Assembly (NCBI GenBank): GCA_964016885.1 | Contig: OZ024740.1 | Coordinates: 412,548,001 to 412,612,000, forward strand | Reading direction: 5' to 3' | Origin: Eledone cirrhosa | Lineage: Eukaryota | Length of the DNA stretch: 64,000 nt | In this document: piece by piece, positions 2,714 through 49,621 of the stretch | Layout of the letters: every line of letters starts with the position of its first letter | How positions within the stretch are numbered: the stretch's first letter is position 1 | The notes under the pieces: generated by a model | What the model saw: only the letters and a program-made list of their open reading frames with translations | Databases searched by the model: none | Told to the model about the DNA's origin: nothing | Made by a program: the position numbers and the translations under genes

Positions 2714-2782
2714 ATGTGTATGTGTATATATATGTATATATTTGTGTGTGTATAAGTATGTATATGTGGATAGACCAGGTTT

Positions 2783-2843
2783 TTTTCATTCTGAAGATTG
2801 AAGGAACATTTGTTTGCTTTTAAGAAACCACTGGTGAATGGAA
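2783..2843 (+). ncRNA. Type I hammerhead ribozyme motif in PLE pseudo-LTR, cleavage triplet mutated to GUG
   Basis: ttcatt-CTGAAGA-ttgaagg...cttttaa-GAAA-cc act gg-TG-aatgga. Stem I ttcatt/aatgga. The NUH rule is violated. Confidence 0.75.
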
Positions 2844-2979
2844 TAATTGCCTTATGTTGCTTTATTACTTTACTACTATATATATGTATATGTAAGGTTC
2901 ATATGAATTATCTAAGACTGAGTTTTACACATACACACATGTATGTGTGTGTGTATGTGTATGCATATGTATATATATG

Positions 2980-3048
<69 letters not shown>

Positions 3049-4185: not shown

Positions 4186-4445
4186 ATATATGTGTGTGTA
4201 TGTATGAGGTTATGTGTATGTATGTGTATGTGTATATATGTGTATGTATATATATGTGTATATGTATATATGTATATATATATATGTGTGTGTGTATGTA
4301 TGCTTTTGTGTTTTGTTTTTTTGTGTGTGTGTTTGCATGTGTAGTTTTATTTTATTTTTCCTTTCCTTCTTCCTTCTCCAGCCTCACTTTCATATAGATT
4401 GCATTTTTGTTTTTAAAATCCAAATTCAATAAACAAACCAGGATT

Positions 4446-4507
4446 TTTTCATTCTGAGGATTGAAAGCAAAACCTTTTGCTTTTAAGAAACCACTGGTAA
4501 ATGGAAT
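4446..4507 (+). ncRNA. Type I hammerhead ribozyme, intact, predicted cleavage after 4499 (GUA)
   Basis: ttcatt-CTGAGGA-ttgaaagcaaaa cc ttttgcttttaa-GAAA-cc act gg-TA-aatggaa. All core positions are canonical. Homologous to 2783-2843. Confidence 0.85.
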
Positions 4508-4599
4508 AATTGCCTTATGTTGTTTATTACATAATAATAATTAAGCTCTGTTACCTACATATAGCACTCTTTTTTCCTGGACTTTTCCGACGGAATTAC

Positions 4600-4669
<70 letters not shown>

Positions 4670-4670
<1 letters not shown>

Positions 4671-5731
4671 GCCGCTAACACCCCCTCTACCACACACACG
4701 CACACGCATCCAAACACGCACACACACACATCCCACTAACAGCTCAACTAATATAAACCCCATCCCCCTACATCACCACCTCTCTCCTCCACCTTTCACA
4801 CCTATCCATCCTCACCCCTGTCCACCGCACCTCCGCACACACAGACACACAGTCCTCTCCATATTCCGACAATTTCTCCACTTGTCATCCTCTTTTACTG
4901 CAATATCTTCACCCTGCCTTGAACATCTGACCACTTCCTGTTGCGCGCGCACCCCACATCTCTCCACTTCCGACCACTACAACTAATCGATTCCACACCA
5001 CCGGTCATCGTTCCAGCTATCCACTCTATAACAGGAACAATATCCAACACCTCATCGCACACTCCACGGAACTACCTTAAGACCTTACCCACGAACAAAC
5101 ACTCACATTCTTTTTCGAACCACGCCACCTACGTCCACACCACGTATAAACACAAACACACGTGGGCATATATTCACACTCAGCCTCCGGAATCCACACG
5201 AGCACTCCCCCCTACACCACCCCTCTGAACCCTCTCCATCCACATGCACGCACACACCGACTTACACCCCACCTCACACACACACCTTTTCCTGAACATG
5301 GAACCTCTTTATTCCTCCAACTCTCACATTCACATACACACGCACACACACATACGTACACCTACACACATACATAAACACCACCTTCAGCCCTCCCCAC
5401 TCGGACCGCCGCCTCCGTCACCCAACTTCACTCGCCACCACCCCTACACGCCTCACACCCTTCCACCACTTGTTTATTTTTATGTTTATTTATATATTTG
5501 TTTTATTTTTATTTCGTTTTTCCTCCCTGTTCTCTCTCCCTCTCTTTTCTAAATGTCTTTCCACAACTCCCCCACACACCTTCGGAACTCTCCTCCTGCC
5601 CACTTTTCTCCTGAGGAAGGGCTTATGCCTGAAACGTCTTACCCCTCTCCCCCTCACACACCCAAAAGCGTGAACCTAATAAACTCTTAGTTGTACTGCC
5701 TCTCTCTTTTTGTTCCCGTCTAAGTTTTAAC
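4670..5731 (+). mobile_element. C/A-rich probable PLE 3' end with minimal hammerhead and AATAAA
   Basis: Bounded by (TA)n on both sides. Contains the HHR core at 5611-5638 and AATAAA at about 5678. No recognisable protein. Confidence 0.5.
5611..5638 (+). ncRNA. Minimal PLE-type hammerhead core, stem I degraded
   Basis: CTGAGGA-agggc ttat gcct-GAAAC-GTC. The stem I partner is not evident. Confidence 0.6.
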
Positions 5732-10076: not shown

Positions 10077-10427
<351 letters not shown>

Positions 10428-10429
10428 CG

Positions 10430-11920
10430 TTTCTGAATTTGTTTAGCAAGATTCTTTATCTGAAATCATGTGTTGAAACCGATATTGTTATACTTTGGGA
10501 GGGTCATGTTGCCAATAAGAAACACACGCACCAGGGTTTTCACTTCAATTTATTATAATAAATTTATAAATTTAGGAATTTATAAATGTCTGGTTGGTTG
10601 GTTGGTTCCACAACCAGGTAGTTGTTTATATAGTGTCAAAGTTCTTTCGTCACACATTATGTGACCTCTTCAGTGACTGGGGATTTTTTTCTATGTTTTT
10701 GTGCCTCTCCTTTGTTCTGTCCTACGCCATTTTGTTTCTGTGTGTGTGTTGTGTGCTCAGTCTGCGCATGCGCCACATCCAGGTGTCTGTGTGTGTTCAT
10801 ATTCGTTTATTTATTTGTTTATTTACAGGTTACCGGTTGGTTGTTTGTTCTATGTGCGTGTGTGTTTTCATTTTGTCCTTAATTGTAAGTGGTGATGTTG
10901 CTGTTCCACTCATATTTTCTATTTAATTTTGGTTGTAATTCTTTTATGTTTATTGCCTCTGTGATTTGTCTAAACATTGCATCTTTTCTGTGTGTAGATT
11001 CTATTTGTATTTCTATGTTCTCTAATTTACCCTTATGTTCTATTTTAGCATGTTGGTGGAGTACAGATGATTCTTTACTATCTTGAAGGTCTCGCCAGTG
11101 TTCATTTATCCGTTCCCCTAAACTACGAGCTTTCTCACCTATGTACATTTTATTTTTGTCTCTACATTGTCCTTCAGTACATCTTATGCTATATACTACA
11201 TTTCTAGTTTTACAGTTAATATGGGGGCTCAATTTACAGGTTATACATTTCTTATCTATACAAGGGGTCTTTGAAAAGGGTATGTCTCGCTAATAAGTGT
11301 TTTTACGGAGGTACCTGGTCTTTATACTATCTTAATATTGAGTTTATGTTTGTCTAGGGCCATTCTAAATGTGTAAGCTAATTCACATCTAGGGGTTGTA
11401 TCGATGAACATTACACTCTGGTATTTATTGCTATCATACCATGAGTTTATTCTATTAGCCTTATTCCTAGTTCTTTCTGTTCTATTCCAAAATTTGCTCC
11501 TATACAAGGGGCAGGTCCCATTTGTGTCATTATTTACCATTTTTTCCCATTTGGTTCTGGCTCCTCTATACACTGTGATTTTATCTCTCTGATTGTAACC
11601 AGAGAACTGCATACGGTGGATGAAGTGTTGTATGTGTCTCTCTAGTTCTTCGGGGTTGCACATGCGGGACACGTTTCTCATCACCCGTACCAAATCCGCA
11701 ATCAGTATGTTGATTTTGGTATGGTCCGAAACAGCCGAGTTTCGGTGGATCAGATGTTCGGAAGTCATGGGTTTGGCATAATGGGAATGGAGGATTAGTT
11801 TTTTGTTATTAATGGTATCTAACCAGAGCTCTGTGTCTAGTACAGGTAATCGATGGTTGGGGTGTTTACTTGGGTAGTCTATAGTAACTCTAATACTATG
11901 GTGGATGGAGTTAGCTATTT
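10430..11920 (-). mobile_element. Penelope-like retroelement 2 (Neptune-like), long arm, decayed
   Basis: The minus strand encodes IANSIHHSIRVTIDYPSKHPNHRLPVLDTELW, then track ORF 11322-11768 (FIHRMQFSGY...PLYRSKFWN), then GIY-YIG (CKTRNVVYSIRC...MYIGE...ERINEH...LNRKYEW). HHR in the 3' UTR. Confidence 0.88.
10635..10677 (-). ncRNA. Type I hammerhead ribozyme of PLE 2
   Basis: Reverse complement reads gtca-CTGAAGA-g gtcaca taatg tgtgac-GAAA-g aa c-TT-tgac. Confidence 0.8.
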
Positions 11921-11933
11921 GCTATTAGCTATT

Positions 11934-12821
<888 letters not shown>

Positions 12822-20254: not shown

Positions 20255-20302
<48 letters not shown>

Positions 20303-20308
<6 letters not shown>

Positions 20309-21281
20309 AAAAAGAGATGAAATCGAAAATGCAACTGGAGTCTTATTTTTTTTTTTAAATATATATATTTATTTGGTTCCCTTACCGGTTTCGCAGTTCT
20401 TTTGCTTTTCAAAAGGTGAGTTGAGATGGAGGGTCTGTGGTTTTTCTCACATCTGGTTGGTCTCTGAATGTTACTTGTTTTATATGGAAAAAGTGACTCG
20501 AAATGCCAGGTTTTTCGAGAAGTAATTTGATTGGTTTGTCAATAATTATAATAAATTTCGGGCCAGGTCGCGTTACAATAGTTCTTCAAATATGAGGGGG
20601 GTTGTCACAGGTTGTTTTTTTCATATATGAGTGTTTGAATTTCTTTTTACTTGAAAAAAGGGGCTCACGAAGGCTTTTTTTTGGTTGGTTATAAATGAAA
20701 TTATAGCTGTCACGTGAACAAGTTTTCATTAAATTTTCGTGCCCTTATTTGGAAATCCATTCTGTAGCCTTTTTAGAGTATTTTATGATAAGTGAAAGAT
20801 AATGGTCAAGAGAAAGGGATGGGAGAATTGTTCTGGTTCAGTGAATATGGTTAGTTCGCTGGGGTGTCAGAATTCAGATTTTCTATTGAATAAAGAAAGA
20901 AAAGATATGTATGTTATTTGTGTGCTTATGTGTGTGTGCGTGTGTGTGTTGTGTGTGTGTGTGTCTGAATTTCTTTACTTTAAAAAAGGTGGCTCACGAA
21001 GGCTTTTTTTAATAAACGTGATTTGATTGGTTATAAATGAAATTTGGCTGTCACGTGAACAAGTTTTCATCACATTTTCGCGCCCTTGTTTGGAAATCTA
21101 TTATGTAGCCTTTATAGAGAATGTTATGACAAGGGAAAGATAGTGGTCATGAGAAATGGGATTGGGAGAATTGTTCTGGTGCAGTGAATATGGTTAGTTC
21201 GCTGAGGTGTCAGAGTTCAGATTTTCTATTGAAGTAAAGATATGTATGTTTATTTGTGATTGTGTGTGTGTGTGTGTGTGC

Positions 21282-21352
<71 letters not shown>

Positions 21353-22165
21353 GGAAGATGATTCTATTAGTAGAAATGGGGGAGGGAGTTGTGTGTGTGT
21401 GTATATGGGTGTTATGTGTGTGTGTGCGAGTATGTTAAGATGGAGAGAATATATATATATATATATTGTGTGTGTGTGTGTGTGTAGGAAAATGATTCCT
21501 TTAGTAGGAATATTTTTGAATGAACATATTTTCCTTACTTATTCGTATTTGTTCTGTTGTATTTTCAGTGCAAACGTATGTTAAGGTTTATTTAGTTTGG
21601 GTTTTTATTTTCTAAAGTAGAAGGTGTTATGTGTGTGTGTGTATGTCATATTATGGTGTTGACATAATGTATATTAAACCATATTTAATGCTGGTCTATA
21701 TTTTTGAATAAACATATTTTCCTTATTTATTCGTATTTGTTCTGTTGTATTGTTAGCGCAAAGGTAAAATGGGAAGAATTTGGGTGTCTTATTACTTGCG
21801 CAAATGTCTAGATATGCACTTAGTGGTATCTGTCTCGTGGTTGGATCTCGTAATTGTTGACGATGAACTGTCATTCTGTTTCTGAGTGTGAGTTTAGTTT
21901 GTCCTATATAATCTTCATTTCATCCTTTACATTTAATGGCATAAATTAGATTTTTTGATGAGCAAGTGAAGTGATTTTTTACAGTAAAATTTTATCCTGA
22001 TTTAAATGTATACGTGGATGTATAAGGAACCAAATAAATATATATATATTTTTTTTTAAATAAGACTGCAGTTGCATTTTCGATTTCATCTCTTTTTCTT
22101 TATACTTTCTCTCGTGTAGGACACCTCGGTTATTTTTCAATTCGTAAAAAAAACCTCACTTTCTA
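20303..22165 (-). mobile_element. Penelope-like retroelement 3 (Neptune-like) 3' fragment with inverted pLTR piece at its 5' end (22024-22165, plus)
   Basis: Minus 21674-22018 reads HFTCSSKNLIYAIKCKG*NEDYIGQTKLTLRNRMTVHRQQ...FIQKYRPALN. The 3' UTR has a 330-bp tandem duplication (20636/20966). HHR at 20379-20416. 20303-20383 is inverted at 22023-22104. Confidence 0.85.
20379..20416 (-). ncRNA. Type I hammerhead, U3-A8 core variant
   Basis: Reverse complement reads cctt-TTGAAAA-gca aaagaac tgc-GAAA-c cg g-TA-aggg. Confidence 0.72.
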
Positions 22166-22919
22166 ATATATATATATATATATATACAGCAGGAAAGTAA
22201 GATTAAATGGATTGTCTTATATATCTTAACATATAGTTGAGCCTAAAAGACACTGAATGATTTTATAGCTAAAGTTGTTGTTAGTTAAACATGTCGAAAG
22301 GACAAATCTAATGTTGGTATCCATATAAACGATTTGAATTAATCGATCAAAGAAGTGGAGCTATGTGGCATCGAGTTTGATATTAATGGCTAGTTATTTA
22401 ATTTATTTGAAATATTTTCGGTGCAATTACATTGTAAGGAAGATGCCTCGCATCCACTTTCGTTGAACCTAGCCTTGGTCATTAGGGGTTTATATAACCA
22501 GACAGTATCCAACACTCATCGGATGCTTAGACCCATAAATGTAACGCATCTTTGGTGGGCTGGTAATCTTCTAGCTTCCAGTTATATCTCCTCTCTCCTC
22601 TTCCATAGCCAACAATAAGCCGTTTATGCTGTCTCTTCTATACTAGAACTGCGATCTTCTCACTTCTTTTATTCCAATGGCAGTGAGCGTTTTCCATACC
22701 GAGCCGAGCGGAAATCCACAGCAGCCCATCTGAACTAGAAATAGCGAGTCCTGCAATCCTCTCTGCCTGCACTCCTGCACAAGATCTTGGCACTTGTCAC
22801 CGTTTCACTCAAAGATGTGGCTGTACTTATCTTCCCTCGCAAATGTGATTTCAATCAGTATTATCCTTTCAGAATACAAACAACTATATCTGCCCTCAGG
22901 GTTGTTTCGTCATTGTTTC

Positions 22920-30189: not shown

Positions 30190-30254
<65 letters not shown>

Positions 30255-30258
<4 letters not shown>

Positions 30259-30724
30259 TATGTATACGTACATACATATATGTATACAGACGTACAGTAG
30301 TATGTATATATATATATACATACATGCACACACATATATATGTACGTGTGGATTCACCGAACATCTATTATAATGCTCGGTGTGTTTGTAAACAAACATC
30401 CCGTATTAAGCCGTAGTGTCTAGCAACCATCGTTGCTCGTTTGTTCAACACTGACAAAGGAACGCTGTACTAGTTTCAAGCTTATTAGCTATCGTCAGCA
30501 ACGTATACCTTCCTGCCAGATGATTGAACGTGTGAAAGTATATACTTTCCTTATGCATATTAACGGCTGAGCAGCCTAATTTGCACATCGAATGGGTTAA
30601 TCGGCCGGCTACACCGAAAACGATAAACAGAAAAAATGAAACGAAATTTCATTTCCCACTCTTAGTACGGCTGTTACTTAAATATAAGTATGTATACATA
30701 CATATATATATATGTATACAGACG
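30255..30724 (-). mobile_element. Retrozyme-like non-coding HHR element, about 1.1 units with terminal redundancy
   Basis: About 430-bp unit. 30255-30292 is repeated at 30685-30724. HHR at 30462-30504. Homologous to 33802-34230 and 47631-49178. Confidence 0.8.
30462..30504 (-). ncRNA. Type I hammerhead ribozyme of the retrozyme-like unit, intact (GUA)
   Basis: Reverse complement reads acgttg-CTGACGA-t agct aata agct t-GAAA-c ta g-TA-cagcgt. Confidence 0.88.
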
Positions 30725-33801: not shown

Positions 33802-34230
33802 TAGTACAGCGTTCCTTTGTCAGTGTTGAACAAACAAGCAACGGTGGTTTCTAGACACTACGGCTTAATACGGGATGTTTGTTTACAAACACACCGAGCA
33901 TTATAATAAATGTTCGGTGAATCCAAACGTACATATATATATATCTGTGCATGTATGTATATATATATACATACTACTGTACGTCTGTATACATATATGT
34001 ATGTATGTATACATACTTATATTTAAGTAACAGCCGTACTAACAGTGGGAAATGAAATTTCGTTTCATTTTTTCTGTTTATCGTTTTCGGTGTAGCCGGC
34101 CGATTAACCCACTCGATGTGCAAATTAGGCTGCTCAGCCGTTAATATGCATAAGGAAAATATATACTTTCAGACGTTCAATCATCTGGCAGGAGGGTATA
34201 CGTTGCTGACGATAGCTAATAAGCTAGAAA
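33802..34230 (+). mobile_element. Retrozyme-like unit-length monomer, circularly permuted at the hammerhead
   Basis: Begins tagTA|cagcgttcc (cleavage site after 33806) and ends cgttg-CTGACGA-tagctaataagct-a-GAAA at 34230. Near-identical to the reverse complement of 30255-30724. Confidence 0.85.
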
Positions 34231-34370
34231 AATCACGGACACTCCCTCTCAACTCTACTTTTGAAAAGCAGAAGAACTGCGAAACCGGTAAAGGAACCAA
34301 ATAAATATATATTTTTTAAAAATAAGACTCCAGTTGCATTTTCGATTTCATCTTTTTTTCTCTCTCTATA
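34226..34370 (+). mobile_element. PLE 3 family pseudo-LTR 3' fragment
   Basis: Homologous to the reverse complement of 20303-20447. Ends in (TA)n. Confidence 0.82.
34258..34293 (+). ncRNA. Type I hammerhead, U3-A8 variant, fully paired, predicted cleavage after 34290
   Basis: ctt-TTGAAAA-gcag aagaa ctgc-GAAA-c cg g-TA-aag. Confidence 0.8.
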
Positions 34371-39171: not shown

Positions 39172-42100
39172 CTACAGGCTGTTGTAGAGAGAAGGCCCAT
39201 TCACACGGGCCATTCTCGCCACTTTCACCCACCTTTCATAAAACTGGTTGGGGTGGAGCACCTCTCTCTTCATCCTGATCCTTCTTCCGAAATGATATCG
39301 GAAGAAAAGGACCAGTTGTTGGCCGGAGAGAAAGGTGTCCGACCTTAGTCCTTTCAAACGCGTCCACCATACAACCTCTTTCACCATGGCTATTACACAG
39401 AGGAAGACCGCCTCTACTTCGTTTTGAAGGGAGGAGGCGGGTTGATCGTAACAATGGACTCGGTGGTCATCCGGATTGGTCCCACCCGTGACAGCAGTTG
39501 TTCCACATAGCGCCACAGGTCGGCAACACCCGGGCAGTGTACCAATGCGTGCGCGAGGTTTTCCTCGTCGCGCACACATCTCGGACAGATCTTCTTCGAA
39601 GGGTCCCTACCCGGGCGCCCGTGTCTGTAGTGCTTCTCTCGAACGGGCAGAGCCCCATGGTAGCACTGCCAGGCCAGGGACCTCTGGAAGTTGTCCATCG
39701 GTCCCAGGCCAAATGTCCTACCGAACAGGCTGGCCAGTTCTTCCTCCTCCATGCCTAGGGCTTCTAGAGAGCGTCGTCGCACCTGCTGCTGACCAACCCT
39801 CTATAGAATGTCGAGGTGGAGTCTCCACTGATACCTGGCTCTGCCTGCCAAAAAGCCGTGAGTGACCGAGCACACCCCGTGTGCCATGCGCCTAGTTTTC
39901 TCGGTCTTTGCTTGACCCAGGATTGCAGCTCGGGAAGCGAGACGAGTCTCGAAAAGGCTCGCCTCAAAAAACGGGGCCCACACCGGTTGACCGGTAAGGA
40001 ATATCTGGAGGTGCCGTAGCCTTAATGCGTGTTTACGCATCTGCAGCCACGGCATCCCCAGCCCTCCTTTAGAAGGGTGTTGACAGCAGACTATCTCCTC
40101 ACCAAAGAAACCCGCTTCTTCCAAAGGAATTGGAAGAGTGCGCGCTCAATTTTGGTGAGCGTTTCTCTTGGGCCAGGCACGACAGTCAAGTGGTAATAGA
40201 TGACGGACGCTATATAAGCGTTCGCCACCTCCGCCCGACGTTTCAGGGATAGTTTGTACTCTGCCCACTTCTGGGCCAGTGCAAACACCCTGTTCGTTAC
40301 TCACTCCAGTTCTTCTCAACCTGGAGGTCTGGTCCGAACCAAACCCCAAGCAGCTCCACCGGGCCCTCCATCCAGCGTCCGACGACGCCGTTGGAGGGCA
40401 TTGGTTTGCCCCTCCACGCGCCGCGTTGCAAACCCACGGACTTTTACCGGTTCAGCTTCGCCCCTGTAAACCATTCGTATTCCTCCAGTAAGGTGCAGAT
40501 CGCTCCGATTTCCTAGGTACTGGACACCATTACTGTTACGTCATCGGCGTAGGCCGACACCTCTTTCTGCAATCCCGGTTCCAAGGGGATGCCCTGCAAC
40601 AACTCCAGCTTCCGCAGCAGTGGCTCGAGAGCCAGCACATACAGAAGGGAGGAGAGAGGGCATCTCTCTCGGATGGACCGCGCGATTTGGAACGGCTCCG
40701 TGGTAGCCGTTCACCTTGACCCTCGAGCAGATCCGGCTGCTGTGAATGGCAGTAATCCAGCTCCTGAAAACGGGGCCGAAACCTGTCGCCGCTAGAACCG
40801 CATTCAGGTAACCATGTCGACCCTATCAAACGCTTTAGATTAATCCAAGTTGATCAGGTCCCCACCAAAGCCGGGTTCATTCCCTACCCTCTCTATGATG
40901 TATCGCATGAGGTGGAGGTTGTCGTGAATGGACCTGGACGGGATAGCGTATGTCTGCGCATCTCCCACCAGGTTGCCCACGACAAGCACCAACCTCTTTG
41001 CTAACACCTTGTACAAAATCTTTAACTCCGTATTTAGCAGAGTTATGGGCCTGAAATTACATATTTCACCCCCCTTATTCTCGTCCTTCCTCACTAGCGA
41101 GACTACGCCCTTTGTCACAGAACAGGGAATTTTCCCGTTCTGTTGCCAGTTTCAGTAGACCGCCTCGAGGAGATTGGAGAAAAAGTCCGGCATCGCTACA
41201 TAAATTTCGTATGGAAGACCATCGAGACTCGGGGATTTGCGTTTGCCGTATTGGCTCAGCACGTCCCCTATTTCAGCAGCTGAAATCGGCCCTTCGCAGG
41301 ACTTCGCCCCCTCGTTCGAAAGACGCGGCAGGCCGTCGAGGTATGGACCGAAATCCACATCCCCATCCAATCTCCCGCCCCTGCCGAACAATCGTGCAAA
41401 TTGCCTTTGAAAGGCCTCACGCATCTGTCCAGGTTCAAGGATCACCCGTTCATAGTGGTCCTTCAAAGACCGGATAGTGGATTTAATCCCACTTTTGGCT
41501 TCTGTCACGCGGGCCCAGCTAACAACTTTGGCCCACTAGTTTCCTAGAGAACGTATTTTGCATCTGACAACGCAAGCTTCGTGCTTCGCGTCCAAAAACT
41601 GCTCTAAGGCCGTTCTCGACGCTAGCACTCTTGCTACGTTGCCGTTTCTAATCGCCTCTTCCACTCCATCTACCAATTCCCTTTCTTTCCTATTCCTATC
41701 TGAAGCTAATTGCTTACTAAAACTTATCGAGACTACTCTAATCTCTCTCTTGAGATATCCCCACCACCTGCTGTTGACAATAGCCCCCGTCAACCGTTCC
41801 TTAACTAAAGGGCTAATCCGATCCCTGTAAGCTTTACTTGCCGGTAAGGACAACTTCAGCTTCCAATAACCGGGTCCCTGTCTATGCGTTCTTTCAAGGT
41901 TGACTATGCAGGTCACTAATGTGTGATCTAAATAGCCAACCATGCGCATCTCTGGACAACTTAATAGGTCCCTATCCTTATTTCTAACTAGGACCCTATC
42001 TAGATACGACCTAGATGATCCGCTGCGGTTAGTCCAAGTCCAGGTCGGCGCAGTCGGAAAAGCTAGCCGATATCTATCGGCCAGGTTAAATCGGCCAATT

Positions 42101-42606
42101 AACCGTTTGAGGCTGTTACAGACCCCTCTATCGCGACATGCTACTACATAGTCCCAACTTTCATCTAGGATACCATTCCAGTCCCCCACTAAAAAGTCTC
42201 CCACTAAAGGTCCCCCACTAAAAGTCTCCATACGTTGGAAGAAGTCCGGCCTCGCTGCCCCAAAAGGGGCATAGGCGGCGACCAGCCTAAAGGCTCCACC
42301 TTCACCATTGCCAACGACTAGTACCACCAGTCGACCCTCCGGGTCCAAGTGCACCGTCAGCGTTGCGAGGCCCAGGTGTTTTTGCAGCAGAACGACAACC
42401 CCACCGCCACCTCCTGGCTGACAGAGAGATGCATAGATCTCAAATTCGTTAAAGGTGGGGGCTAGCTGGCGTTCGCTGCTGACCCTGGACTCGCAAATAG
42501 CCATGATATTTATACTGCGCGACCTGAGGTCATTTAGAAGTTTTGCCTGCTTCCAATGTGAGCTCAGGCCACGCGCATTCAAACATCCTACTCTCAATAC
42601 AGCCAT
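39172..42606 (-). pseudogene. LINE ORF2 (APE endonuclease, RT, C-terminal zinc motif), multiple frameshifts and stops
   Basis: VGCLNARGL, GDWN, SYLDRVL, YLDH, KSPSLDGLPYE, FRPITLLNTELKI, VSAYADDVT (about 40535-40560), HPSKGGLGMP, CPRC..E...HALVHC. Confidence 0.92.
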
Positions 42607-42609
42607 GTT

Positions 42610-44540
42610 GGCGGCGAACGGGAAGAAAAAGAAAAGGCACCTGCCACCTTACGTCCCGGGGATCGGGCTGCACAACTTCCATGGGGGTGAGTGAGGGGTT
42701 GTTGGGTGGAGTGGTGGTTTGTGGTGGTGTGGGGATATCAGAGTGTGGTCGGGTTGGGGTGTTTGGTGTGGTGTGGGTGTCTGGGTTTGGGTGAGGACAT
42801 TTTTCAAGAGGACGCGGTTCATTGGTTTTACCCATAGCTCGTCCTCAGGAAAATTGTCTTTTAGTTCTATATAAATGTCTATCGGAGTTTTAATCATTTT
42901 TAAAGAGGGTTTCTTTGTATCCCTCGCGAAATTTGGCCCTTCGGTTTGCACCGTAGGGTTTTGTTAAATTTTGTTTACAAGTTTTATATTTTTTGTGTTG
43001 AAGTATGTGTTTAGCTGTGTCTGTGTAATTTTTGTTGGTTTTTGTTCTGTATTTTTTGTGTTTTGTTTTGGGGAGGGGTTATTTTTCTTTGTGTGGGTGC
43101 GGTGTGTTTTCTTTTTTTTCGCTTTATTTTTCGGAAGGGTTCCCCCTCGTCTTCTGATGTTAAGGGATTCCCTTCCATGTTGGAAGGAAGGGGTATATTT
43201 TGGGGTCTTGTTATGTATGTTGTGGAGTTGTTTTAGGTGGGGAGGTGTTGGGTGGGACCGTGTTCAGTATTTTGTTGACTTGTTGTGTTTGTTGTTTTTG
43301 GGGTGGTGGTGGTGGTGATTGTGTTTTTGTTTGTGGAGTTGTTTTGGGTGTGGAGGGGTTGGGTGGGTCTGTGTTCAGTTTTTTGTTGACTTTGTTGTGT
43401 TTGTTGTTGTTATAGTGGTGGTGGTGGTGTTGTTTTTGGAGGTGTTGGCAGTAAAGTTGTTTTAGTTTGTTGAGCACAGGCAGCGCTCAGGTGACCTCTG
43501 CCACCACAGAGGTAGCAAGCGGGCCGCCTACCCTGAACTGCAATGTTCATAAATTGGGAGCCTTCCAGGGACACTCTTTGGGGTATCTTTGCGATACGTT
43601 CTGGTTTCATTCGAACCAGAACCTGTATGTCTATACCGCCAAAGTGGCTCCTGGTGGCTCTTCCTATATCAAGGAGTTCATCTTCGTCGTCCAGTATACC
43701 TCCTAGTATCCACCACATATTTGTATTTATATATATACCGGAGATTGTTATTTTTTGAATTTTCTTCCCCATGTAGATGGGGAAGAATGTGTACTGTTTG
43801 GATACAATTGGCGACACCGAGTAGTTTTGGGCCACCAATTTGTCCTTCATCAAAATTATCAGACTCCCATATAATTTCACTCTTACAATAAAAATCACGT
43901 CCTTCAACGCGTCCCTTAACACCAGCTTAATTTCGCTATGCAATAATTGAGCCGGTTTTTTCGACGCATTTGATATAGTTCAAAGTCCTTAGGACTGTGT
44001 CTCATTCAATATCCTTAGGGGAGATTATGGTGAATTCACCGTTTTCACCAAAGCTCACCTGTTTTCTCCCCTCTTTTAGCAATTCCGCTGCATTACTGAT
44101 GTCAACTGGGATTAAAGTTTCGGTCTCCTTAACGACTTGGGCAAAGGATATTCATGTAGTGTTGTCTTTTTTTGTTGTGTTTCGTTGCTGTTGTTCTTGC
44201 TTTCTTGGGTGTTTGCGTTTTGGGGGTTTTCACCCATTTTTTCGTGTTTTGAGTTCACATTTTTCATTGTTGCTGCTGTTTTCGCTTTTGTGTGTGTTTT
44301 TGTTATTTTCTTTGTTATTCGTGTTGGTGTTGTTGGTGTCAGTGTAATTTATACATTCTTTCAATTTACTGTTTCCATTGGTTGGGTTATTACCCAAGTT
44401 TTTACAATTGTTCGCCAAATCCGCTTCCATACGTGCATGTGAAAGCGAGAGAAGGGAAGCTTCAGTAGGTTGAGTTACTTCTTCCTCTTTATCACTTTCC
44501 CTGGGGGGCGTGGCAGTGGTGTTTTGATGTGTGGTGTCCA
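42610..44540 (-). pseudogene. LINE ORF1 (gag-like, zinc knuckle), disrupted
   Basis: GRRPACYLCGGRGHLSAAC in track ORF 43410-43943. Low-complexity K/T/P-rich flanking frames with an internal duplication of about 100 bp at 43220-43430. Confidence 0.8.
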
Positions 44541-45417: not shown

Positions 45418-47746
45418 GTAAGTTTATTTGCTAACATTCCGAATCCGCAAAGGACCTGAACAAGCCAGGTAAACTGAATTCTCTCCAAAATTTAAATGTC
45501 AACAAACATATTGTTAGATACATCGTAGATCTCGCTAAGCAGAATGGACCGGCAACACACATATACCTCAAACATTTCAACGCACAAAATGTTACTATTA
45601 GCTCTCTTTCCTAGAGAGGTTTGTTTAATTTATTTTTCTCTTTTTTATCTGCATACACACATATACGCATAAATATACACACACATACACACACACTCAT
45701 ATCGCAGTACAGAACCTAAAAAACGTGTTATCCCTGCATATTTATTTCTATTCAAGGTTTCTTCTTGTAGTCTCTGTGGTCATTACGCTGTAAAGTATAC
45801 CACATTACATACGGTGTTGTATCATATATCATATATATTACATTATATTATATTATTATATTATGTTATGTTATTTCATATTATATTATGTTAGCATGTT
45901 ATATTACATGTTATGTAAATATGTTTGTATCTAATAACAAAGATATATCCAAAATCCAATTATCTCTAAAATATTTTCTTTCTCGGAACTTCCTTAGAAT
46001 TCAGAATCCATAATCTCATCTACCAAATAATAGGGACAAGTTCACTCATATATAATTTGATTCAACGTAATTGTTAATATACCACCAATCCTTAATTTAA
46101 CATTAACACACCGTTGTAGAATTGGCTAGTATAACAGAAAGTTAATCCGCTATAATGGACATACAACACCTTTTCTACTAGACTCTGCATGGTATCTAAA
46201 ACCATATATATGAAATTGTTCTCACCAAAGAAAAGTTGTTTTTGTTTTGTGTGTGTGTAGAATCCAAATTGACTGAAACTATATTAAGATATGTAGCTCA
46301 ATTTGTGTAATACAGTGGGTAACATTGTCCCAGAAATAAGCAATACGAAATATCAAAATGAATGCAACTGAACACGCGGAAAAATATTTTAATCGCCTAC
46401 TCCATTGAGATCTAATTTCCTCACAAGGACAGGAACTTGCACAAGGGTGTAAGTTGGAACCCCGTTTTAAATATCTATCTTTCCTGAGTATTAGGTAATG
46501 ATTCACATTGTAAAGTTTCTGTATGTACAGAATTCCAGAATTCCAAATAGTACGTGCACACATAAATATGTGTGCGTGTGAGCGTATGTTTTTGTGTGTA
46601 TGTCTGTGTGTCTGCGACTATGTTAGTAAATTATATCTGATTTTTCATTCAATATTATATTTGTTCTGACAAATACTAAACGCATACTAACGTAACTGAT
46701 TATTATATGTATAATATTAGTATGGTTATATCGATAAAACACAAAGCTTCATCATTGTAAACTCTAAGTTATCCGGGATAGGGATTGTCGCTAGCACAAT
46801 TCCTATAATTCTATAATCTGAGAAAATCTGCCCTCTACCAGATAATAAAACACACGGACCCACTAACATTGGCCATGTGGTTGATCTTATGCCTGTGTAC
46901 TAGGTGCATATGAAAAGAAAAATACTTTCAAAACTAAACATATAAGCAGATAAATTTGTGAAAGCACTTAAATGAATATTCGATCTTTCCGTATAATTCT
47001 GATATGTTCTTATATTTATATATACCTACTACTTGTCATATTTACAAGCGAATGCTTTTAGAGATCCTGACGAATATTCAAGAATAATCTATTAAAATAA
47101 TAATTAGATTATAGCAGTGTGTACAGAATGAGGTAAAAATAAAATTGCTGACTAATTTACCTTTTAGCTGCAGAAAAATAACAATTGTTAACAAGTAAAA
47201 GTGATAACTTCAAGAAATTCTAAATGATATCTTAACATAATTTGCTTCCTTATGCTAAAGATCTTTCTTGTTTTCTTTGAAAACAAGGGGCAGCTAAATT
47301 CATGTTACTCTCTATTAAGCAACACGTTAAAAATAAATAATCCAGCCTCGCAGTTAAAATCTGTTTGCAAATATAGAAAAAAATATTTCCGGGTATTTTT
47401 GCAGTATAATTAGTATAATTAAACATAAACTATGAAAAGGGAAACAACTCAAATATGCCAACAGCATGAATTTATGTAGTTTATTTAAAAACTGATACAT
47501 AGAATACGGCATGGAAAGAGTTTTCAATGAATTGAAATTATATTCAATTATTCATGCAATATTTAACTTAAGGAGAATGCTACTTGAATGTAGTATATAT
47601 TTATATTTAAGTATATATTTATATAATTATTAAGTTGAAAAAAAATGAAAACGAAATTTCATTTCTCACTCTTAGTATGGCACTTACTTAAATGTAAGTA
47701 TGTATGTATACGTACATACATATATGTATACAGACGTACAGTAGCA

Positions 47747-47792
<46 letters not shown>

Positions 47793-47958
47793 CATACATA
47801 TAAACATACAGGTACACATACATATATGCACGCATCAGTTTAGCGGACGCTTATTATAACGCCGCTTTGTTCGTGTGTAAACAAACTGAAAAGCCTGAAT
47901 TTATGCCATACGGTGTTAAGGCAACCACGTCACCTTTTTGTTCAACACTGACACAGGA

Positions 47959-48000
47959 ACGATGTACTAGTTTCAAGCTTGTTAGTATCATCAGCACCGT
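47959..48000 (-). ncRNA. Type I hammerhead, array unit 1, with a 1-nt deletion in stem II
   Basis: Reverse complement reads acggtg-CTGATGA-tactaacaagctt-GAAA-c ta g-TA-catcgt. Confidence 0.75.
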
Positions 48001-48235
48001 TTACCCATCTGCCAGATAGTTGAACGTTCGAAAGTATATACTTTCCTTATGAAAATTAACGGCTGAGCAGCCTAAGTTGCATATTGAGTGAGTTAAATCG
48101 GTCAGGCATACCGAAAACGATAAGTTGAAAAAAATGAAAACGAAATTTCATTTCTCACTCTTAGTATGGCACTTACTTAAATGTAAGTATGTATGTATAC
48201 GTACATACATATATGTATACAGACGTACAGTAGCA

Positions 48236-48333
<98 letters not shown>

Positions 48334-48499
48334 CATACATATATACATACAGGTACACATACATATATGCACGCATCAGTTTAGCGGACGCTTATTATAA
48401 CGCCGCTTTGTTCGTTTGTAAACAAACTGAACAGCCTGAATTTATGCCATACGGTGTTAAGGCAACCACGTCACCTTTTTGTTCAACACTGACACGGGA

Positions 48500-48542
48500 A
48501 CGATGTACTAGTTTCAAGCTTGTTAGCTATCATCAGCACCGT
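48500..48542 (-). ncRNA. Type I hammerhead, array unit 2, intact (GUA)
   Basis: Reverse complement reads acggtg-CTGATGA-t agct aaca agct t-GAAA-c ta g-TA-catcgt. Confidence 0.88.
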
Positions 48543-48780
48543 TTACCCATCTGCCAGATAGTTGAACGTTCGAAAGTATATACTTTCCTTATGAAAATTA
48601 ACGGCTGAGCAGCCTAATTTGCATATTGAGTGAGTTAAATCGGTCAGGCATAGCGAAAACGATAAGCTGAAAAAAATGAAAACGAAATTTCATTTCTCAC
48701 TCTTAGTATGGCACTTACTTAAATGTAAGTATGTATGTATACGTACATACATATATGTATACAGACGTACAGTAGCATGC

Positions 48781-48829
<49 letters not shown>

Positions 48830-49058
48830 CATACATATATACATACAGGTACACATACATATATGCACGCATCAGTTTAGCGGACGCCTATTATAACACC
48901 GCTTTGTTCGTTTGTAAACAAACTGAACAGCCTGAATTTATGCCATACGGTGTTAAGGTAATCAGTTTGTTTACAAACGAACAAAGCGGCGTTATAATAA
49001 GCGTCCGCTAAACTGACGCGTGCATATATGTATGTGTACCTGTATGTATATATGTATG

Positions 49059-49126
<68 letters not shown>

Positions 49127-49621
49127 TGCTACTGTACGTCTGTATACATATATGTATGTACGTATACATACATACTTATATATAATTATTTATTTGTTTA
49201 TATATTTCTGTCGTACAAGAGGCGGCCACGTGGTATTTGCGTATATTCGACATCATTATCAATATTTTAACGACAATATTAATTCTTTATTTCATGAAGA
49301 ATTACTTATGTGAACAAAATAACTTTTTCTATTGAACGTTAGTTATATAAAAACAATCCCATAATTTAACCGATGTCTAGGGTTAATTTAGATTAGTTGT
49401 GTATCGGCTCTCGAGTACAAAATACAGCACATGCGTAACGAGTTTGAAGTAAAAGTAAAACTGGAATAAATAGTATTAGTGTTTAAGTATATATATAGCT
49501 ACAAACATGTACCAGCAATCCCCCATCTCTTCCTTCTGTCTGTGGAATCTTAAATAAATGAGAATTTGAAACTAACACTATCTGTAATCTGTTTTCATTC
49601 ATAAAAACATGTGTAAAACTA

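Follow-up and report, generated by a model that had tools for sequence, protein, structure and literature searches.

An inverted arm of a Penelope-like retrotransposon opens at a predicted hammerhead cleavage site

Minimal hammerhead motifs in the Penelope-like elements (PLEs) of metazoans show weak cleavage in vitro, and as monomers they do not cleave (PMC4209133). The same study found about 1,300 motifs of the U3-A8 type in the PLEs of Schistosoma mansoni, and a covariant U3-A8 core is described as active in vitro in a portion of PMC3088659. In PMC11167929, hammerhead mutants left in vitro insertion unchanged and uncut RNA was the dominant substrate; no RNA-seq reads started or stopped at the hammerhead site, and cleavage was assisted by protein. 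Whether minimal PLE hammerheads cut in cells, and whether the cut RNA enters the genome, is called open in both PMC4209133 and PMC11167929. Passages of PMC8557442 present a Cys-rich linker as the mark of Neptune and Nematis PLEs and an inverted, 5′-truncated copy at the 5′ end, together with a one-sided tail, as typical of them. For Penelope, parts of PMC2377424 and PMC6765202 place the transcription start within the pLTR.

We analyzed a 64,000-nt stretch of the Eledone cirrhosa genome (contig OZ024740.1, here called the window). An earlier note, made from the letters alone, had described a PLE with an inverted pLTR arm that begins directly 3′ of the GUA cleavage triplet of the family's U3/A8 minimal hammerhead. 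U3/A8 cores, inverted arms, and the element type are all of kinds already known; it is the position at which the arm opens that we weigh here.

A truncated element with an inverted arm

The locus is a 5′-truncated Penelope-like retrotransposon with a short inverted arm, arranged head to head, and both 3′ ends lie in (TA)n. Along the window, the main body comes first, its 3′ end next to (TA)n; across the junction lies the inverted arm, whose 3′ end meets (AT)n (Table 1). The ORF piece (P0001) carries the PF01541 match and is 68% identical to residues 657 to 772 of P0003, a 772-aa protein with RVT_1 and GIY-YIG domains; a 3′ region of 1.4 kb comes next, and then the pLTR. The RT of the window copy has been lost through truncation. 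A Cys-rich, zinc-finger-like linker lies upstream of GIY-YIG in all four of the close homologs that reach that far, and the window copy is truncated just past it. We assume that the element belongs to the Neptune clade, going by the linker in the homologs and by general knowledge of the group for a copy that is itself without RT. The features of EN+ PLEs that are present are the C-terminal GIY-YIG domain, a hammerhead motif in the pLTR near the 3′ end, and an inverted 5′-truncated copy, with the 3′ ends facing outward. The copy shows signs of age, namely, two in-frame stops and arms that are 87% identical.

Protein searches returned no relative above 69 to 70% identity, and exact pattern scans for family copies had no hits in the metagenome, viral, and prokaryote collections. 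Six related metagenome loci were distant (32 to 52% identity), with the hammerhead motif in none of the six, and no related loci were found in viral contigs. Past the part that it has in common with the other two family copies, the arm runs on for about 61 nt, in line with the overhang of about 60 nt that the earlier note had given; the extension is present once within the window and is probably element sequence.

Both family copies that are complete in this region have the minimal type I U3-A8 pattern (core UUGANAA, stem II, GAAA, palindromic stem III, UH, and stem I). A motif scan of both strands placed the U3/A8 minimal hammerhead at 34261 to 34290 (+) in copy A and at 20412 to 20383 (−) in copy B. 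Each has the core UUGAAAA, GAAA, stems I and II of 3 to 4 bp each, and, as stem III, the palindrome ACCGGU. The identification of a PLE with an inverted pLTR arm and a U3/A8 minimal hammerhead is upheld. The predicted monomer fold is unfavorable (+2.4 and +2.9 kcal/mol), and the predicted swapped dimer reaches −15.5 and −14.5 kcal/mol, against cofold minimum free energies of −19.1 and −18.3 kcal/mol. By these models, the energies are as expected for a dimer-dependent motif, and a dimer would be feasible. Single-strand folds were no better than shuffles in five of five cases (z from −0.62 to 0.90); a motif that depends on a dimer would be expected to behave so, and we give the result no weight. 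Rfam gave no hammerhead among the 150 of 154 matches listed. No variants of the core or of stem III appeared among the 40 of 74 variants listed from public reads on copy B, and the ribozyme sequence looks maintained.

The window also contains other repeats. Positions 1 to 2605 form a near-perfect palindrome with 1.3-kb arms (96%) and a PLE-like ORF end in which a GIY-YIG-like motif can be picked out by eye; Pfam gave no match on its 382-aa frame. The ORFs at 41536 to 43979 (−) have AP-endonuclease (PF03372) and zinc-knuckle matches and represent a LINE-type remnant, and a long array of a 38-bp satellite with higher-order spacing begins at about 50950.

Table 1. Coordinates of the element, its junction, and the family copies in the window
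Feature	Position	Strand	Remarks
(TA)n at the 3′ end of the main body, left side of the target microsatellite	20256..20305	.	
Copy B: the element's 3′ UTR and its downstream pLTR	20302..21676	−	Ends in (TA)n; includes the duplication 20628-20967/20958-21304
Hammerhead of copy B	20379..20416	−	U3/A8 core 20412-20406; predicted cut 20383/20382; candidate 5′ splice site, GT at −3
Cluster of 5′ ends and head-to-head joints across the family, at −71 to −73 relative to the cut	20453..20455	−	X1 contigs and X14 reads; likely transcription start
5′-truncated ORF end with GIY-YIG endonuclease, Neptune-type PLE	21677..22018	−	Two in-frame stops; PF01541, E 1.8e-8; 68% to P0003
Junction filler between ORF piece and arm	22019..22023	.	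22018-22024 repeats 22006-22012; likely templated insertion
Inverted pLTR arm, part common to the other two family copies	22024..22104	+	87-88% to copies A and B; opens at +1
Arm extension of about 61 nt, likely a PLE tail begun at another RT start site	22105..22165	+	Pyrimidine tract; AG at 22118-22119 (candidate 3′ splice site)
(AT)n at the 3′ end of the arm, right side of the target microsatellite	22166..22186	.	
Copy A, short family piece	34226..34366	+	Opens at about −65; hammerhead 34261-34290; predicted cut 34290/34291

The start of the arm and the predicted cut

The arm's first bases, at 22024, are AAGGAACCAAATAAAT, and the same 16 bases run from 34291 in copy A, directly 3′ of the GTA at 34288 to 34290. 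In a BLAST alignment with copy A, the match opens exactly at +1, the first position 3′ of the predicted cut (22024 to 22099 against 34291 to 34361, 88%). The alignment with copy B opens at +3, with a single mismatch at +2, and identity to the two copies is 87 to 88%. On the 5′ side of 22024, just 8 or 9 of 30 positions agree with the hammerhead in an ungapped comparison.

The protein homology of the ORF piece opens at 22018, and at the residue before it all four homologs have G, whereas the window copy reads T, itself preceded by Y and P; on these grounds, we read 22019/20 to 22023 as likely filler. The 7-mer at 22018 to 22024, which spans the filler, is an exact direct repeat of 22006 to 22012 in the adjoining ORF piece. 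GTA is also present at 22020 to 22022, which allows an alternative arm start at −3 plus a 1-nt insertion. Of positions taken at random, 21 of 329 and 69 of 1,691 have a GTA within 0 to 2 nt, and a 7-mer direct repeat of this kind occurs at 3 of 302 ORF positions and 13 of 1,664 flank positions. We favor a 4- to 5-nt filler that would be a templated copy of nearby ORF sequence, with the arm starting at 22024, or at 22025 if the first A is shared, since a templated filler needs a single coincidence of 4 to 6%, whereas a start at −3 needs an insertion and a coincidence of 1%. The claim that the arm opens directly 3′ of the family GUA therefore stands, to within one base (22024 being +1); the start at 22021 given in the earlier note shifts to 22024, its first 3 nt falling into the filler.

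Were the arm to open at −3, it would begin with the GU of a 5′-UTR intron, and its template would be a debranched splicing intermediate still carrying exon 2. The cleavage triplet does open CCG/GTAAAG in copy A (34288, +) and CCG/GTAAGG in copy B (20385, −), so that a candidate 5′ splice site overlaps it, and a pyrimidine tract with an AG (22118-22119, +) follows about 99 nt downstream in the arm. These motifs may delimit a 99-nt intron in the 5′ UTR with the GUA triplet as its 5′ splice site, and removal of such an intron would destroy the ribozyme. 5′-UTR introns are known in PLEs, as part of PMC2377424 reports. A splice-donor start nonetheless requires the inserted nucleotide plus a direct repeat arising by chance, and the evidence for splicing consists of motifs, so we consider this origin of the arm highly improbable.

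A second way to reach the observed junction would leave both the ribozyme and the intron out of account. Templated filler is a common signature of end joining, and the copy is old, as its stops and the divergence of its arms attest. The arms may thus originally have been longer (for example, to −72), with a later central deletion of the inverted repeat, end joining with a templated insert, and a new edge at +1 by chance. Fillers also arise during integration, however, and we rate a secondary junction of this kind as quite unlikely.

A census of hammerhead-bearing pieces in the window compared 11 5′ ends from four families, each with its own predicted cut. The arm at 22024 was the one exact match to +1. 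Of the other 10 ends, two belong to the same family as the arm (−65 and about −1636). The rest lay at −5, +38, about +70, about −260, −63 (two ends), and −638, with one longer still; apart from the one at −5, 9 of the 11 are 38 nt or more away. One exact match in 11 is unremarkable, because 1 to 4% is expected per end and because the arm was picked for the coincidence.

Several of these pieces deserve description in their own right. In another hammerhead family, the pieces at 2774 to 3027 and 4437 to 4665 have a common start 63 nt ahead of their predicted cut (the hammerhead occupies 4454 to 4499), in parallel with the −72 end described below. A PLE-like unit at 10339 to 12820 has long inverted arms with a hammerhead in each (10673, −; 12535, +), and its shorter arm opens 638 nt upstream of the cut. 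A noncoding tandem repeat of about 490 nt, present at 47631 to 49188, 30249 to 30724, and 33802 to 34230, resembles a non-LTR retrozyme; its minimal C3/G8 hammerhead has cores on the minus strand at 47994, 48536, and 30498. One whole monomer makes up the piece at 33802 to 34230, which opens 5 nt before the cut site, ends 6 to 11 nt before the next, and is fused to copy A through a common AGAAA; this fusion possibly arose when the template was switched to a monomer that was cleaved or circular. A loose motif scan added isolated candidate hammerhead-like cores at 5611, 16553, and 31764.

Family 5′ ends in public reads and the template of the arm

Of 16 public runs listed, 12 contain part of the stretch, none of them recorded as RNA; four were mapped to copy B (X1, X14, X4, and X5), with three contigs for X4 and nothing for X5. 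The mapping passed over low-complexity sequence on the 3′ side of the cut, and copies opening at +1 and ends nearer than about −27 were invisible to it. In X1 (2,710 contigs), summed depth fell about fourfold, from 1.40 million at 20424 to 20434 to 0.35 million at 20457 to 20467, and raw reads of X14 fell about twofold, from 989 to 493; sequencing depth is not copy number, and X14 is RAD-seq, with uneven counts.

Loose ends on the element's 5′ side fell at the same place. X1 had them at 20453 (13 contigs, agreement 0.51) and 20455 (22 contigs, agreement 0.42), among the 13 of 125 positions listed, and X14 had 173 reads at 20454 (agreement 0.6). We infer from the low agreement (0.42 to 0.6) that many different flanks are involved. 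At the pile-up, the loose consensus of X1 sets out with sequence resembling the start of the element itself, read from the opposite strand, and X1 contains opposite-strand joints at 20453/20454, 20413/20453, and 20415/20451. In X4, from a second organism, one of the three contigs opens at 20453. A family-wide fixed 5′ end lies at 20453 to 20455, with head-to-head joints in which both arms open there. Two sets of loose ends were not counted as 5′ ends: at 20415 and 20421, a subfamily variant of two bases (20416-20417) likely caused clipping, and the ends at 20492 to 20493 and 20578 mostly continue as family sequence.

The pile-up site reads CC/AGATG, a pyrimidine-purine start, and the ends at −71 to −73 likely mark the transcription start, that is, a capped 5′ end. 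Many family copies, inverted arms included, open there and were reverse transcribed from uncut RNA through an intact ribozyme, since each contains it. Seven X1 joints (three marked as opposite strand and four with letters between, read as head to head) provide 14 ends: 6 fall at −67 to −72, another 6 are spread over as many places between −27 and −58, and 2 are far upstream. These observations support the idea that a short arm may extend as far as a fixed 5′ end of the RNA; the visible end of this kind is at about −72, not at the cut site. The scatter, which by itself can bring an arm to the cut, comes to about 1.3% of ends per nucleotide, or 2 to 4% for a target of 2 to 3 nt, a figure extrapolated to +1 from a small, selected sample.

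For the start of the arm, we favor over self-cleavage an incomplete cDNA on uncut RNA, like those that leave scattered ends elsewhere in the family, which came to end at the predicted cut by chance or stalling; we hold this account to be evenly poised between right and wrong. The unchanged insertion of hammerhead mutants and the dominance of uncut RNA as substrate (PMC11167929), the weak cleavage by minimal motifs (PMC4209133), and the unfavorable monomer fold also speak for it. The endonuclease would cut both strands of the (TA)n tract. One 3′ end would prime reverse transcription in the downstream pLTR and run about 1.7 kb into the ORF; the other would prime at a start site in the pLTR lying about 61 nt beyond and, whether by chance or through stalling at the ribozyme in its folded or dimerized state, would be extended by 142 nt. 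The two cDNAs would then be joined via the short templated filler. Against copying from uncut RNA stand the match itself, which is exact within one base and which scatter would yield in only a few percent of cases, and the family arms that reach a fixed RNA 5′ end, next to which a second fixed end at the cut would be mechanistically natural. The maintained look of the ribozyme and its feasible dimer also count against it, and a spike of ends at +1 may exist in the part that the mapping passed over.

The arm could instead be cDNA that ran off the end of an RNA cleaved by its own ribozyme, as the earlier note inferred. A dimeric U3/A8 hammerhead would then cut a minority of the transcripts, and the 5′-OH product would serve as template for the second priming event. 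The opening at +1, a filler that is accounted for without hammerhead sequence, the ability of family arms to reach a fixed 5′ end, and an apparently conserved core all fit a cleaved template. So do the in vitro activity of U3-A8 cores in the portion of PMC3088659 cited above, the assistance that a PLE protein lends to cleavage by a PLE hammerhead (PMC11167929), and the precedent of R2, where a ribozyme cut defines genomic 5′ junctions (PMC3774820). Weighing on the other side are the single junction (n = 1), the visible pile-up at −72 rather than at the cut site among scattered ends that are common, and the absence in Anolis of RNA-seq ends at the site (PMC11167929). We regard a cleaved template as a tentative reading, and on balance a doubtful one.

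Combined with the family data, a cleaved template would mean that the family has two fixed RNA 5′ ends, a capped one at −72 and a hammerhead-made 5′-OH at +1, both of them serving as templates, with the arm a fossil of U3/A8 cleavage in vivo; we put this forward with reservation, as something that could be true but that we would not presume. A joint form with the candidate 99-nt intron, in which splicing would destroy the ribozyme to give mRNA and unspliced RNA would be cut or copied, would amount to a splice-or-cleave switch and seems to us unlikely. A single junction does not settle cleavage in vivo, and the public data point to a likely transcription start at −72. Histograms of the 5′ ends of inverted arms offer a cheap test that needs only genomes, and it is to such a test that this locus points.

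Comparison with described elements

The element resembles the EN+ Neptune and Nematis PLEs in the passages of PMC8557442 that describe them, with a C-terminal GIY-YIG domain, 5′ truncation, an inverted truncated copy, a putative tail at one end, a microsatellite target, and a pLTR hammerhead. It differs from those passages in the length of this putative tail, which is about 61 nt rather than the usual 30 to 40, and in an arm that opens at the predicted cut site. A literature search that covered few subscription papers turned up no description of genomic 5′ ends of PLEs falling at the hammerhead site.

The hammerhead is like the U3-A8 motifs of Schistosoma Cercyon (PMC4209133) in its short stem I, palindromic stem III, U3-A8 covariation, and predicted dependence on a dimer. 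Here, a candidate 5′ splice site and the cleavage triplet overlap; the intron of Drosophila virilis is on the other side, its 3′ end abutting helix I (PMC4209133). PAc, a Poseidon element of Anolis (PMC11167929), likewise has two RT start sites that define the tail (a feature we deduce for the present element), an AT-rich target, and extension of both strands. In PAc, hammerhead cutting is dispensable and is not seen in RNA-seq; an arm copied from cleaved RNA would be an exception to that pattern. The HDV-like ribozyme of R2 provides a precedent for a ribozyme cut that marks genomic 5′ junctions (PMC3774820). Cleavage routinely defines the 5′ end of R2, whereas the visible fixed end of the family described here lies about 72 nt upstream of the cut.
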